From UHGV virus genome UHGV-0145327: a DNA stretch of 35,087 nucleotides, one strand, 5' to 3'. The translations under genes and the position numbers were made by a program. Below, in pieces: positions 24,801-29,693 of this stretch; the first letter of the stretch is position 1; each line of letters begins with the position of its first letter. The notes under the pieces are model-generated. The model searched no databases. It was not told where the DNA came from and saw nothing but the letters and a program-made list of their open reading frames with translations. The DNA comes from a virus.

Positions 24801-25744
24801 GCAATCCCCCTGTCTGCAAACTTCCCTTCCCGAACTCCCGTTAACGAGTCTTCTCTCAGCAGGTAATCAAAATCAGCCGTCCAGCCCGTGTCGTTGTCTC
24901 CGAAGTAAAACGGCTTGGCCTGATGCACAAACGCCCTGACATACGCTCTGAAACCGTCCACGTTTGGCGTTTTCAGTTGCGGGATGATTTTCTTCAGGCG
25001 ACGTTTGCGTTTCTCGTTGACCGCAACAGCGTGTGGCAGTCTGTCACCGACTTCGGTGTTGTAGGCGTTCAGGAAGGATTCGTAGTCGATTCGTTCTGCC
25101 TTGCGACGTTCAGGTTTAACCTGCCCATCGCCTCCCCCATTGGGGGGTAGGGGGGTATTATTTATATTCTTGTTAATACCTTCTTGTTCATGATGTGCGG
25201 TTGTTTGTGCGGCTTCATGTGCGCTTTCATGTGCGGCATGTGCGCTGAAAGCCGCGCCATTACTGGCTTCGTCATGTGCGGCATCATGTGCGGTTGTTTG
25301 TGCGGCTTCATGTGCGGGTAAATTGTCCATTTTTTGAGCATATTCATGGTAATTTGTGATGGTTATCACACGACCTTTTTGCTTCTCTCCATCAATGGAG
25401 ATCATCCCCTCTTTCACAAAAACCTGAAGCATCCGCTCAACCTGATCACGGCTTGCTGGCTTGCCATGCCTGTCGCATAACTGAAGACCTAAATCAGCTG
25501 CTGTCACAACCAGTTGACCGGGTTGCAGATGCCATTCATGACCTTTGAAATTCGCTTTGTATGGCTTTCTGGCGGCATTCAGGAGAAGGTTTTCCCACAG
25601 GGTGCGAAGATAAACATCTTTCGCCCATGACTGTTTCAGAATGCTCCGGTACAACGGAATGTAACCAGTTTTCTGGTTCTCCATCCTGTTGCTCCTGCGC
25701 TCGTGTGCGGCGCTGAAATCGTAGATTTTTGCTGTATTGCTCAT
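24797..25744 (-). CDS. Replication initiation protein (lambda O-like in role, 315 aa) with an internal His/Ala-rich repeat region
   Basis: Immediately upstream of and overlapping the helicase gene; central repeats [14 protein letters not shown]...[14 protein letters not shown] are encoded by DNA direct repeats; C-terminal ...[19 protein letters not shown]... resembles a conserved phage replication-protein C-terminal domain. Confidence 0.75.
25130..25320. repeat. Candidate replication origin inside the initiator gene: about 35-bp direct repeats with several CATGTGCG(G) units, next to an AT-rich stretch and a C5/G6 inverted repeat
   Basis: catgatgtgcggttgtttgtgcggcttcatgtgcg at 25189-25223 recurs as catcatgtgcggttgtttgtgcggcttcatgtgcg at 25283-25317; further CATGTGCG units at about 25229, 25238 and 25273; AT-rich tattatttatattcttgttaatacc at 25156-25180; CCCCCATTGGGGGG at 25133-25146. 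Confidence 0.5.
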
Positions 25745-25746
25745 AA

Positions 25747-26019
25747 CTACCTGCCTTGACGAAAGACCTTAAGAACATCGTTAAACTGACTTACGGATAT
25801 GTCTTCTTTGAGCAGCTTTTCCAGAAATGCGTTTGGAATGAACGTATATCCCTCCTCTTTTGGTAGAGACGGGAGCAACGCCCTCGCCTCAGCCTTCAGA
25901 AGCTCAGTTCTGGCAACTTTCACAAAAGAGATTTGAGTTCTTTCGTCAATGGAACGAAGGAAGCGCAAGCGCTTGGCTTCTTTGTGTGTATCAGGTGGAT
26001 TAAAGCCTTTGTTTCGCAT
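25747..26019 (-). CDS. Hypothetical protein (90 aa) between cII and the replication initiator
   Basis: ATG at 26019 with GAGGTAATTAT upstream; the longer track ORF (25747..26328) overlaps cII in another frame and is rejected upstream of this start. Confidence 0.5.
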   Translation of the reverse strand: MRNKGFNPPDTHKEAKRLRFLRSIDERTQISFVKVARTELLKAEARALLPSLPKEEGYTFIPNAFLEKLLKEDISVSQFNDVLKVFRQGR

Positions 26020-26041
26020 ATAATTACCTCGTTGGATGTTG

Positions 26042-26335
26042 TTAAAATTCCATTTGTATTTGATCAGAACGCTCGGTTGCCGCCGGGCGTTTTTTATTGG
26101 TGAGAATCGAAGCAACTTGTCGTGCCAATCGAGCCATATCGTCGTCAACGACGCCCCATTCAAGAACAGCAAGCAGCATTGAGAACTTTGGAATCCAATC
26201 CCTCTTCCACCTGCTGATCTGCGACTTATCAACTCCCACAGCTTCCGCTGTCTTCTCAGTTCCAAGCATTGCGATTTTGTTAAGCAACGCACTCTCGATT
26301 CGTAGAGCCTCGTTGCGTTTGTTTGCACGAACCAT
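26042..26335 (-). CDS. cII: Transcriptional activator CII (97 aa)
   Basis: MVRANKRNEALRIESALLNKIAMLGTEKTAEAVGVDKSQISRWKRDWIPKFSMLLAVLEWGVVDDDMARLARQVASILTNKKRPAATERSDQIQMEF matches lambda CII as recalled; the leader AGGAAATACTTACAT-ATG is also lambda-like. Confidence 0.95.
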   Translation of the reverse strand: MVRANKRNEALRIESALLNKIAMLGTEKTAEAVGVDKSQISRWKRDWIPKFSMLLAVLEWGVVDDDMARLARQVASILTNKKRPAATERSDQIQMEF

Positions 26336-26393
26336 ATGTAAGTATTTCCTTAACAAATAAGAAGTTATGCGCATCAACTTATGCGCGTTGTAT

Positions 26394-26436
26394 TCCCGCA
26401 TTTCGGCGGGAATGAGGACCATGACTGTTAAAGAGC
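26394..26436 (-). promoter_or_regulatory. nutR: boxA (CGCTCTTTAAC) and boxB hairpin (TCCCGC-cgaaat-GCGGGA) between cro and cII
   Basis: Read on the minus strand: accGCTCTTTAAcag ... tTCCCGCCGAAATGCGGGAat. boxA precedes boxB as in lambdoid nut sites. Confidence 0.6.
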
Positions 26437-26444
26437 GGTGTTAC

Positions 26445-26669
26445 TTATGCTGCCTGATTCGGTTTTGGAAACAGGTGTGGCAAATCGGGGCGAATTTCGT
26501 AAGCCTTGATCTGCCCTCCAGTGGCGTTAACGATGGCGGTAACTTTCTCTGGAGAGACCAACCCGCCTTTCAGCCATTTGTGTACTGCTGGCTGCGTTAC
26601 ACCACACTTGTCGGCAAGGCGCTTTTGGCTACCGACAATTTTCAAGGCTCGTTGAATTACTAAATTCAT
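26445..26669 (-). CDS. cro: Cro-like HTH repressor (74 aa from MNLVIQRALK)
   Basis: Small HTH protein (QKRLADKCGVTQPAVHKWLKG) transcribed divergently from cI; AAGAGG Shine-Dalgarno 7 nt before the MNLV ATG. Confidence 0.75.
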   Translation of the reverse strand: MNLVIQRALKIVGSQKRLADKCGVTQPAVHKWLKGGLVSPEKVTAIVNATGGQIKAYEIRPDLPHLFPKPNQAA

Positions 26670-26705
26670 GAGCATACCTCTTGTGGTCATTACTTATAAC
26701 CAAAG

Positions 26706-26768
26706 ATAACTCAAGTTATAAAAAATAGCAATAACCTTTGTTATTTTACTTTGGATAACCGTAGTTAT
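26706..26768. promoter_or_regulatory. OR operator cluster: three ATAAC-N4-GTTAT sites between cro and cI (PR/PRM region)
   Basis: ATAACtcaaGTTAT (26706-26719), ATAACctttGTTAT (26731-26744), ATAACcgtaGTTAT (26755-26768). Confidence 0.6.
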
Positions 26769-26780
26769 AGATTTGTGGGT

Positions 26781-27488
26781 ATGAAAACATTCGCAGAAAG
26801 ACTAAATGCAGCCATGAGCTCAGCAGGGGTATCACAATCACAGCTTGCTGACATGGTTGGAATATCTCAGCCAGCCATACAGAAGATGTCGTCCGGTAAA
26901 ACAAACGGATCTCGCAAGATGGTTGAATTAGCCAATGCTTTAAAAGTGCGCCCTGAATGGCTTAGTTCTGGTATTGGTGAAATGAGGGATGGTGCACATG
27001 AAGAACCATCCAATGTCCGTGAGTCATCTTTAAAAGCTGTGGTATGGGAAGACATTAAAAGAAACGATGACGAGTTTGTTGCGTTGCCTCTTCTTAACGT
27101 TTCGCTTTCAGCTGGAAGCGGTAGCTGCGAGCTAGAGGAATCATCGGAGTTCTCTTTGGTTTTCAGAAAGCACTATCTGAAAAAGATGGGAGTATCTGAA
27201 AGATCAGCCAAGCTAGTTAGGGTTGTAGGGCAAAGCATGGAACCAACGCTTCACGATGGCGATGTTGTTGGTGTTAACACGCAAGATACCACCATCAGAG
27301 ATGGTAAAACCTACGCTATTTGCCAGTCTGATTTGTTACGAGTAAAAACATTAATCGCCACCCCTACATCGGTGATAATCAGATCAATAAATCGCGAAGA
27401 GTACCCGGATGAAGTAATGGATAGAGATGAATTTCATGAAACCGTAAGGATTATTGGCAGAGTATTCTGGTCGTCTCATAGTTGGTAA
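26781..27488 (+). CDS. cI: CI-type prophage repressor with HTH and LexA-like S24 autocleavage domain (235 aa from MKTFAERL)
   Basis: HTH QSQLADMVGISQPAIQKM; C-terminal S24 motifs (VVGQSMEPTLHDGDVV Ser, downstream Lys). ATG 26751 is an alternative start but would overlap the third operator. Confidence 0.85.
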   Translation: MKTFAERLNAAMSSAGVSQSQLADMVGISQPAIQKMSSGKTNGSRKMVELANALKVRPEWLSSGIGEMRDGAHEEPSNVRESSLKAVVWEDIKRNDDEFVALPLLNVSLSAGSGSCELEESSEFSLVFRKHYLKKMGVSERSAKLVRVVGQSMEPTLHDGDVVGVNTQDTTIRDGKTYAICQSDLLRVKTLIATPTSVIIRSINREEYPDEVMDRDEFHETVRIIGRVFWSSHSW

Positions 27489-27528
27489 CCGATAATCAGA
27501 AGAAGACTTACGGAAGTGCGGAGGGATA

Positions 27529-27825
27529 ATGGAATTTCTGATAGTTTTTGTTGTTGTTTTGGTCATCATTCTTTTTGTTTTGCTAAGCATTAGTAAAAAG
27601 CTATCTCAAGTGATTGAACATAGCTCTAATCGCGCAAAAGAAGAAGAGCATCTAATTGATATAAAAGAGATTCTCTCTGATATAAAAATCACATTAGATG
27701 AAATAAAATACACAACAGATCTAATTGAACAGTATAAAATACCAACCCCAAACGAGAGAAAAGCAATAGATCAATATCGTATTGACTTAGAAATCGACGA
27801 AATGCTAAGCAAAAGAAAAGACTAA
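27529..27825 (+). CDS. Small membrane-anchored hypothetical protein (98 aa) in the rexAB position, very AT-rich
   Basis: Directly downstream of cI on the same strand; N-terminal hydrophobic segment MEFLIVFVVVLVIILFVLLSI followed by a charged, helix-prone region; followed by an intrinsic terminator. Confidence 0.6.
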   Translation: MEFLIVFVVVLVIILFVLLSISKKLSQVIEHSSNRAKEEEHLIDIKEILSDIKITLDEIKYTTDLIEQYKIPTPNERKAIDQYRIDLEIDEMLSKRKD

Positions 27826-27830
27826 AAACA

Positions 27831-27858
27831 CCCGGCCTCAGCGCCGGGTTTTCTTTTC
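27831..27858 (+). terminator. Intrinsic terminator ending the cI/rex-slot operon
   Basis: CCCGGC-ctcagc-GCCGGG followed by TTTTCTTTTCC, 5 bp after the stop codon. Confidence 0.65.
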
Positions 27859-27978
27859 CTGCCGTTCACCACCCAATCACCCATCATCATCATAGACAAG
27901 CATCAAGCCAAAGGTAACACCTTCACCCCGCACGCAAGCCCTCAAACACCAATCAATCAGCAACATTTACAAAAATAA

Positions 27979-28064
27979 AATACCTTTGTTATCCATCACT
28001 TATAACTTATTTACCACAAAATATAAATTAGGTTATTGACCACACCTATAACCTAAGTTATCTT
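27979..28064. promoter_or_regulatory. OL/PL region: operator-like sites of the same ATAAC-N4-GTTAT family and a candidate PL (-35 TTGACC at 28036-28041)
   Basis: ATAACctaaGTTAT at 28048-28061 is a full site; ATACCtttgTTAT near 27980-27992 is a degenerate copy; TTGACC with TATCTT 17 bp downstream, pointing toward N. Confidence 0.5.
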
Positions 28065-28110
28065 TAAGCCATCAGCAGGGCGCTGGTAGCCAAACGGAAC
28101 AGATTGGCAG

Positions 28111-28151
28111 GCTCTTTAACATTGATGGGATTGTCCCGCCGAAATGCGGGA
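28111..28151 (+). promoter_or_regulatory. nutL: boxA (GCTCTTTAA) and boxB hairpin (TCCCGC-cgaaat-GCGGGA) upstream of N
   Basis: boxA at 28111-28119; boxB at 28134-28151 has the identical sequence to the boxB found in nutR. Confidence 0.6.
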
Positions 28152-28258
28152 ACCAAAGAGTAGTTGGCTTTGGGGTGGCGTGAAGTGCAGCTGCACGACG
28201 GCAACCGGAAGATAAGCACCCGGCGCGTCACCGCCAAAGTCAATCATCGGAGGTCAAC

Positions 28259-28531
28259 ATGACAGTAGTCATTACATATCTGGCTGACGATAACGCCAGA
28301 AATCGCCGCAGAGCACGCAGACAGGCTCAACGTGAACAGGCAATGCAAGAGCAGCGACTGGCGCGAAAAATTGCGCTAAAGCTCTCTGGTTGCGTCAGAG
28401 CAGATAAAGCAGCATCACTCGGAAGCCTTCGCTGCAAGAAGGCAGATGAATGCAGTGGAAGTATTTGCCTGCCAAACGTAGCCATTTACGCGGCAGGCTA
28501 CCGGAAATCAAAACAACTGACGGCGAGATGA
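28259..28531 (+). CDS. N: N-type transcription antiterminator (90 aa; P22 gp24-like)
   Basis: Arginine-rich motif DNARNRRRARRQAQREQ near the N-terminus; C-terminal LPNVAIYAAGYRKSKQLTAR matches the P22 gp24 C-terminus (LPGVALYAAGHRKSKQITAR) as recalled. Confidence 0.85.
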   Translation: MTVVITYLADDNARNRRRARRQAQREQAMQEQRLARKIALKLSGCVRADKAASLGSLRCKKADECSGSICLPNVAIYAAGYRKSKQLTAR

Positions 28532-28547
28532 TAAATTAATTTGCTAA

Positions 28548-29129
28548 TTACTTGTTTTTGCCATGCTTATACTGAGCGATAAGTTCATCCATAAGACTGT
28601 CTTTCTTCCCAGCAAACCTAATGTAGCACTCATTTCTATAGCGTTCCGGGATAACAAAACGGTCGATTTCAGGATATCCAGTAGCAGAAGGTACCCGAAT
28701 AAGAAGCCCTTTTTCGAGCAATGAGATTGCTTCAGGGCTTCCCTTTTCTGTCTTTAGCTGGTTATTAGCGGCTACAGCGAATGCCAAATACGCTCTTTCT
28801 CCAAGAGTTAACGAATCAAACAAATCTTGCACGTATTTCTCTTCTTTAGATTTGCGCTTCTGAGCAGCGAATATCTCAATTCTTTCAGTCACAGCGTGAT
28901 AAGCGGAATTAACAACGCCGTTAAGCACATAGCTAACGCAAAACAACAGGATGTAATACATCCAGTAATGAGGAAGGATTTCTGGATTATGCAGGTTTAT
29001 CCATTCTTTTACGCTTACAGGCATAACAATAATCAATATGATTAGGATGATTAGCATATGAATCAACTGTTTAAGTGTCATTCCTTGCAGGAAAAAATGC
29101 ATTAGTTCCTGCCACCATGAGTTGTTCAT
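28548..29129 (-). CDS. sieB: Superinfection exclusion protein SieB-like membrane protein (193 aa)
   Basis: Lies next to N on the opposite strand as sieB does in lambda; similar size (about 192 aa); N-terminal transmembrane segments (LIHMLIILIILIIVMPV, YWMYYILLFCVSYVL). Confidence 0.75.
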   Translation of the reverse strand: MNNSWWQELMHFFLQGMTLKQLIHMLIILIILIIVMPVSVKEWINLHNPEILPHYWMYYILLFCVSYVLNGVVNSAYHAVTERIEIFAAQKRKSKEEKYVQDLFDSLTLGERAYLAFAVAANNQLKTEKGSPEAISLLEKGLLIRVPSATGYPEIDRFVIPERYRNECYIRFAGKKDSLMDELIAQYKHGKNK

Positions 29130-29343
29130 CGGCGTTTCTCTTTTGCTCTCTGTAGGGGTGAATAGAGTTTATCCGATTTCTCGCTGTAGGGGTACACGAG
29201 AACCACCGAGCCTGATGTGGTTAAAAGACAGGCATACTAATAAACACTGCACTGTGTATTCATTCCAACGAGTGAATACACTGAGCAATGTCGCTCGTAA
29301 CTAAACAGGAGCCGACTTGTTCTGATTATTGGAAATCTTCTTT

Positions 29344-29369
29344 GCCCTCCAGTGTGAGGGCATTTTTTT
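29344..29369 (+). terminator. Intrinsic terminator in the PL operon (tL-like)
   Basis: GCCCTC-cagtgt-GAGGGC followed by ATTTTTTT. Confidence 0.6.
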
Positions 29370-29381
29370 GACGGAGAAAAT

Positions 29382-29693
29382 ATGAAATTACGTGTCTGGC
29401 ATATCCCGCAAGTACCTATGAAGCCGTTCATTGTAGAAGTGGCAAGTGTTGAAGAGGGTGTTCGCCTGATGGATGCACTGGCTGATTATGATGCCTTTCA
29501 GTATGACAACAATATCAAGCCTGACTACTGCAATGCTAACGGCCTTGAGATGTGGGATGAGAGCCTTATCGATGAAGATTTATCAGATATGGGGCTTACT
29601 GATCGCTGGGTGGATTGGTACAGCGAATGCCAATGTTACGACGACCCACGTAAATATCTCGAAAGCCTGAAAGAAGAAACATCAGCCGCCTAA
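29382..29693 (+). CDS. Hypothetical acidic protein (103 aa), first gene after sieB in the PL operon
   Basis: GGAGAAAAT-ATG start; Cys-containing acidic protein. Position corresponds to P22 gene 17 / lambda ral region, but I cannot confirm the family from sequence. Confidence 0.55.
   Translation: MKLRVWHIPQVPMKPFIVEVASVEEGVRLMDALADYDAFQYDNNIKPDYCNANGLEMWDESLIDEDLSDMGLTDRWVDWYSECQCYDDPRKYLESLKEETSAA

Follow-up and report, generated by a model that had tools for sequence, protein, structure and literature searches.

The question raised by this locus is whether two inverted copies of a short hairpin sequence, placed on either side of a set of phage regulatory genes, are the boxB elements of nutR and nutL, and whether they are paired with the N protein encoded nearby. 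Both had been proposed in a sequence-only reading of the viral genome UHGV-0145327. The 18-mer in question, TCCCGCCGAAATGCGGGA, has exact copies at 26394-26411 (minus strand) and 28134-28151 (plus strand) only in the whole 35,087-nt stretch of DNA that was analysed (the window), so the claim that both sites carry the same boxB was correct. No further matches with two mismatches or fewer were found anywhere in the window, the number expected from 100 shuffles being 0. As argued below, these hairpins are very probably nutL and nutR of a P22-like (Lederbergvirus-type) prophage of E. coli, which also encodes the cognate N.

The anatomy of the two sites is the same. On the same strand as each boxB hairpin, and 5' of it, stands a boxA 11-mer, GCTCTTTAACA, of which the window holds two exact copies only. 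The nutR boxA (GCUCUUUAACA) is located at 26426-26436 on the minus strand, starting 8 nt past the stop codon of cro, and the identical nutL boxA at 28111-28121 on the plus strand, some 40 nt past the inferred start of pL transcription. The boxA-like GCTCTTTAA, already noticed ahead of each boxB in the sequence-only reading, is included in this 11-mer; the spacer between its end and the hairpin is 16 nt long at nutR and 14 nt long at nutL. We take the boxA found here to be the E. coli rrn boxA consensus GCUCUUUAACA, and not the shorter form of lambda.

When folded as RNA, the 18-mer (UCCCGC-CGAAAU-GCGGGA) forms a stem of 6 bp with a CGAAAU hexaloop at -9.7 kcal/mol, while the same procedure gave -7.9 kcal/mol for the lambda boxB and -7.1 kcal/mol for that of P22. 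The nutL hairpin is kept in both the minimum free energy (MFE) and the centroid structures of the entire 205-nt pL leader, as is the nutR hairpin in those of the 121-nt interval between cro and cII. Besides boxB, the leader of N holds a second, longer hairpin. A search against Rfam (E-value mode, positions 25500-29500) gave only chance-level matches and no nut or boxB family.

The position of the hairpins becomes meaningful on the map of the region, whose gene order is that of a standard lambdoid immunity region (cII, nutR, cro, OR/pR, cI, pL/OL, nutL, N, sieB), with the plus strand of the window corresponding to the leftward direction of lambda. The three operators OR1-OR3, all matching ATAACNNNNGTTAT, occupy 26706-26768 between the two operons, and pR would direct transcription along the minus strand; its hexamers, TTGCTA-17-TATCTT, were read by eye and fall beneath the threshold of the promoter scan. 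They are followed on this strand by cro (26445-26669), recognized as an open reading frame with Pfam matches to YdaS_toxin and HTH_3 and a sub-threshold match to P22_Cro, then by nutR, and by cII (26042-26338; Pfam Phage_CII, 5e-48) as the first gene beyond it. Between nutR and cII, at 26369-26386 of the minus strand, a further predicted hairpin, GCGCAU-AAGUUG-AUGCGC, takes the position of tR1, which in HK620 comes directly after nutR; it is a putative terminator. On the plus strand, the cI repressor gene (26781-27488; Pfam HTH_3 and Peptidase_S24) is followed, ahead of OL, by a 98-aa open reading frame and a terminator (27830-27849). The pL promoter, TTGACC-17-TATCTT, was called by the promoter scan at 28036-28064 with OL1 overlapping it, and corresponds to the annotated pL/OL of HK620; two or three OL operators, with matches to ATAACNNNNGTTAT at 28048-28061 and 28023-28036, overlap this promoter. 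The N gene comes next, at 28259-28531, as the first open reading frame downstream of pL and nutL, with sieB beyond it on the opposite strand. An intrinsic-terminator-like hairpin with a T-run at 29343-29362 (plus strand), which the terminator scan placed beyond N in the pL operon, is a candidate tL. Both boxB hairpins are thus read in sense orientation, the one between cro and cII from pR and the one between pL and N from pL, each in company with boxA, as in other lambdoid N/nut systems. Elsewhere, the window is P22-like (Lederbergvirus), with mosaic kinship to JEP4, E212 and CUS-3.

The protein encoded by this first gene of the pL operon has 90 amino acids, is preceded by a GGAGG ribosome-binding site, and belongs to the N_peptide family of Pfam (PF25694; 1.1e-15, over the family cut-off) and to PHROG 271, 'anti-termination protein N-like' (4e-34). 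It carries the predicted N-terminal arginine-rich motif (ARM), NARNRRRARRQAQREQ at residues 12-27, with the core NARNRRRARR at residues 12-21. We delimit the motif as DNARNRRRARRQAQREQA, codons 11-28 (28289-28342, plus strand), read from the sequence as the putative boxB-binding segment. The assertion that the C-terminus resembles that of P22 gp24 holds for the last 20 residues or so (LPxVAxYAAGxRKSKQxTAR), where most of the likeness is concentrated; overall it is modest, at 36% identity. With 98% identity to N of phage HK620, and 100% to the protein of JEP4, this N is, by its sequence, better termed HK620-type than P22-gp24-like. A PDB sequence search with N gave no relevant match, the solved N peptides being too short and too divergent for phmmer.

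Phage HK620 also provides the precedent for the nut sites. Its record AF335538 marks 'nutL; putative N-utilization leftward' and 'nutR' over stretches with identical boxA, spacer and boxB, placed in the same way relative to pL, cro and cII; both boxBs described here, and the nutL boxA, lie inside the stretches that correspond to these annotations. Because the HK620 annotation covers identical sequences, the nut/N module is already on record, and the pair is not new but known as annotation. The closest known system is that of HK620, along with the N genes from HK140, HK630 and JEP4; like HK620, this prophage has boxB UCCCGCCGAAAUGCGGGA at both nut sites and an N with the YLADDNARNRRRARRQAQREQ motif. 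The kinship does not extend to the immunity cassette that the nut sites enclose (cI, cro, the operators and the extra open reading frame), which is unlike that of HK620 and closest to that of the Stx1a-converting phage Stx1a_10051, nor to cII, which is of lambda type here and of P22 c1 type in HK620. The segment from nutL to the N motif was found in 547 of 5426 complete E. coli genomes (about 10%), the exact 18-mer in at least 120 IMG/VR contigs, and relatives of this N on about 500 viral contigs. Already annotated in HK620 and carried by roughly one complete E. coli genome in ten, the module must be regarded as ordinary. The searchable literature gave us neither biochemical nor structural work on an HK620-type N/boxB pair, and no open-access paper was found to mention the literal boxB sequence.

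What can be learned beyond annotation comes from the mosaic structure of N, which makes a comparison of nut sites among phages with the closest N homologues informative. N of HK629 combines a phage-21 ARM with the central and C-terminal parts found in N of this prophage, and its nut sites have phage-21 boxBs. In an E. albertii prophage (L208), a P22 ARM is joined to a similar C-terminal tail (…DECSGSICLPNVALYAAGYRKSKQLTAR), and the boxB is that of P22, GCGCUGACAAAGCGC. Conversely, N of CUS-3 and that of another locus (L207) have the HK620-type ARM with a different C-terminus, accompanied by the HK620-type boxB at nutR in the former and at both nut sites in the latter. A scan of GTDB genomes yielded 7 loci, two informative N chimeras among them.

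The same pattern was obtained when 203 distinct N contexts, comprising all the loci fetched, were scored for boxB upstream, although part of this set (loci L003-L122) had been chosen by boxB itself. The HK620-type ARM was accompanied by its own boxB in 111 of 114 contexts, the phage-21 ARM in 35 of 36, and the P22 ARM in 52 of 53; the boxB of another type was found with none of the three. As every ARM type was found with several C-terminal modules, boxB is matched to the ARM independently of the remainder of N in this partly boxB-selected set. Thus, the comparison with the closest homologues, like the chimeras, indicates that boxB follows the ARM, and we conclude from these co-occurrences that the HK620-type ARM and the HK620-type boxB are strictly linked in nature.

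At nutL, physical linkage might suffice to explain such an association, as only 107 nt separate boxB from the start codon of N. The nutR copy is situated 1.15-3 kb from nutL, across variable immunity regions, and was kept in 99 of the 111 contexts with the HK620-type boxB at nutL, 11 of the 12 others having a short upstream sequence. Physical linkage cannot account for this association across variable cassettes. In loci selected by N, 0 of 18 boxB columns were variable against a background of about 10%, which fits constraint but is not significant alone; since the hairpin is invariant, there is no compensatory covariation. The sequences upstream were heterogeneous among these loci in a MAFFT alignment.

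Of the three exceptions, in which the HK620-type ARM occurs without the HK620-type boxB, at least two come from rearranged loci. At pL, mEp213 has a lambda-type N together with the nutL and nutR of lambda; its intact HK620-type N is an orphan about 1.4 kb downstream, preceded by a decayed boxB and lacking boxA. Such orphan copies raise the possibility that the module of the present prophage is likewise a decayed, non-functional remnant of a defective prophage, as the nutL of mEp213 has decayed next to a working lambda-type set. We consider this hardly credible here, given that N is intact, 100% identical to that of JEP4 and the sole N-type open reading frame listed between pL and sieB, and that the two nut sites are likewise intact, together with the promoters, the operators, cI, cro and cII.

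Two other explanations would deprive the hairpins of their connection with N. Inverted copies that enclose an exchangeable immunity cassette might act as DNA, serving as boundaries, as recombination sequences or as a palindrome bound by a protein. Indeed, boxB pairs flank immunity regions of many sequences and of at least nine size classes (this prophage represents the 1740-bp class), and recombination joints occur beside or inside the copies, for instance in the gap between boxA and boxB when HK629 is compared with this prophage, and within boxB in mEp213. However, the copies were divergent in 87 of 87 two-copy IMG/VR loci among the matches listed and the loop is asymmetric; therefore, in all of these loci the outward transcript has CGAAAU in the loop. 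In addition, boxA precedes each copy on the transcribed strand, and the boxB sequence tracks the ARM of N, not the type of repressor or operator. A role in marking recombination boundaries would be a by-product, compatible with nut function, and a DNA-level role in place of the RNA one seems to us very improbable.

It could also be proposed that the hairpins do work as RNA, for example as terminators or as RNase III or stability elements, while N recognises something else and its ARM merely hitch-hikes with them. The short distance between the nutL boxB and the N start codon would favour such co-inheritance, and the additional hairpin in the N leader speaks on the same side. A role as terminators was discarded: the terminator scan called neither copy, and neither has a T-run after it. 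The retention of the distant nutR copy together with the ARM, described above, is not expected from hitch-hiking, and the corresponding hairpin is the one that N binds in the paradigms of lambda, P22 and phage 21 (1A4T, 1NYB; PMC12550061). We therefore leave this explanation only a very small probability. The identification of the hairpins as nutL and nutR with a cognate N is supported, at the level of comparative sequence evidence, by their position and orientation, by the anatomy of boxA and hairpin, by the family of N, and by the co-occurrence of ARM and boxB; the pairing put forward in the sequence-only reading is upheld to the same degree.

The mechanism that we propose is modelled as a whole on the paradigm of lambda, P22 and phage 21. 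In each transcript, from pL and from pR, boxA (GCUCUUUAACA) would come first and the boxB hairpin with its CGAAAU loop second. The N-terminal ARM (about residues 11-28) would bind boxB on the nascent transcripts, boxA would be bound by NusB/S10, and the central and C-terminal parts of N would contact NusA and RNA polymerase. Tethered by RNA, the complex could allow the polymerase to resist terminators located past nutR, in the tR1 region before cII, and past N, such as that at 29343-29362. By analogy with these phages, binding, the use of Nus factors and antitermination are thus what we infer for this N/nut pair.

In practical terms, the results fix the early regulatory map of the prophage, with pL, nutL and N on one side and pR, cro, nutR and cII on the other, and assign its N/nut specificity to the common HK620 type, borne by some 10% of complete E. 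coli genomes. The locus is also a clear natural example in which the ARM and both boxBs stay matched, while the C-terminus of N and the immunity cassette are freely shuffled. The residual novelty lies in the fact that a widespread specificity class is seemingly without biochemical or structural characterisation, unlike those of lambda, P22 and phage 21.

A comparison with these three systems shows where the HK620 type stands. P22 gp24 belongs to the same protein family as N of this prophage and has in common with it the N-terminal MTV(V)ITY, the core NA(K/R)xRRxxRR and the C-terminal motif given above. The P22 nutR boxB, CCGC-CGACAAC-GCGG, shares its stem with the HK620 type and resembles it in the loop, differing mainly by an extra C. 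The P22 loop is the GACAA pentaloop (PDB 1A4T), in which C is looped out, leaving a GNRA-like fold (PMC12550061); the CGAAAU loop lacks this looped-out C. Nevertheless, this prophage falls outside the P22 gp24 class, defined by the motif GNAKTRRHERRRKLAIERD and boxBs with GACAA loops, as its motif and both boxBs differ, and none of the 53 contexts with the P22 motif had an HK620-type boxB. N of phage 21 shares the central segment LARKIALKLSGCVRADKAASLGSLRCKK nearly exactly, and both phages have boxA and the stretch ahead of nutL in common as well, whereas its ARM, GTAKSRYKARRAELIAERR, and its boxB sequence are completely unlike those found here; an HK620-type boxB was found in 0 of 36 contexts with the phage-21 motif GTAKSRYKARRAELIAERR, the class of which has boxBs with CUAAC loops. 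Both boxBs have loops of 6 nt, however, CUAACC in phage 21 (PDB 1NYB) and C-GAAA-U here, and the CUAACC hexaloop folds into a GNRA-like turn of 4 nt bordered by a non-canonical C-C pair (PMC12550061, where both solved N peptide-boxB complexes, 1A4T and 1NYB, are cited).

Lambda has the same overall system and gene order, and a similar RRRxRR core (the lambda-type N of mEp213 has MDAQTRRRERRAEKQAQW). Its boxB loops, GAAAA and GAAGA, are purine-rich and of the GAAA type, as here, but have 5 nt instead of 6; the HK620-type ARM has no equivalent of lambda Trp-18, and boxA is GCUCUUUAACA in this prophage versus GCUCUUA in the lambda-type nut sites of mEp213. The loop therefore differs from those of lambda and P22, as had been remarked from the sequence, and from the CUAACC type of phage 21 too. 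By analogy, the CGAAAU hexaloop could form a true GNRA (GAAA) tetraloop flanked by a C-U pair, in a layout like that of the phage-21 hexaloop. If so, the HK620-type ARM and boxB may represent a fourth mode of recognition between N peptide and RNA, orthogonal to those of lambda, P22 and phage 21, in which a GAAA (GNRA) tetraloop with a non-canonical C-U closing pair would be read by an arginine-rich helix that has neither the Trp of lambda nor the contacts of P22 with a looped-out C. We offer this idea tentatively, rating its chances at a little under even; if true, it would add a natural orthogonal pair for RNA tethering to those of lambda, P22 and phage 21, and a test of the use, or the absence, of the extruded base.

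The nutL region of the window (28095-28133) was compared with the nutL of two comparison loci, L203 and L204. A stretch that begins upstream of boxA and ends immediately ahead of boxB (ATTGGCAGGCTCTTTAACAT...) is shared by the window phage and phages bearing a phage-21-type nutL (HK629, DE3), and divergence from the latter starts at boxB. Such an arrangement, in which similarity runs up to boxB and is lost there, places the exchange joint between specificity classes in the boxA-boxB spacer.

In phage mEp213, the recombination joint lies in the boxB interior. The pL operon of this phage (NC_019720, 30879-34130; see also comparison locus L175, 2016-3773) contains two N genes. The first encodes a protein with the lambda motif and is paired with lambda nutL and nutR boxBs, while the second, located about 1.4 kb downstream, is intact and of HK620 type, its product being 98.9% identical to the N protein of the window. 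The nutL of this second gene is decayed (CCCTCCGAAATGCGGG) and devoid of boxA.

E. coli-type N/nut modules also occur on short contigs binned as MAGs of Segatella copri (Bacteroidota; L206 and L210) and Oxalobacter (L209). Most likely, these are mis-binned enterobacterial prophage contigs.

A 98-aa ORF (27529-27825, + strand) with a hydrophobic N-terminus, flanked by cI on one side and a terminator (27830-27849) on the other, occupies the position of rexAB/hkaS. It matched PHROG 18389, a family of unknown function, with no match in Pfam or PADLOC, and is probably an accessory gene expressed in the lysogen.

The MFE and centroid structures predicted for the pL leader both contain a long imperfect hairpin (28163-28245, + strand) that separates the nutL boxB from the N start codon. 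As its position resembles that of the stem cleaved by RNase III in the leader of lambda N, it may have a role in regulating N translation.

Folding predictions for the cro-cII interval (26330-26450, - strand; z-score -3.5) show the nutR boxA (CUCUUUAACA) base-paired to the cII ribosome-binding region (UGUUAAGGA). This predicted pairing could be a coincidence, or boxA occupancy could be linked to cII translation. Antisense to the cII 3' end, a strong terminator-like hairpin accompanied by a T-run (26066-26093, + strand) is placed at the same position as the terminator of lambda oop RNA.
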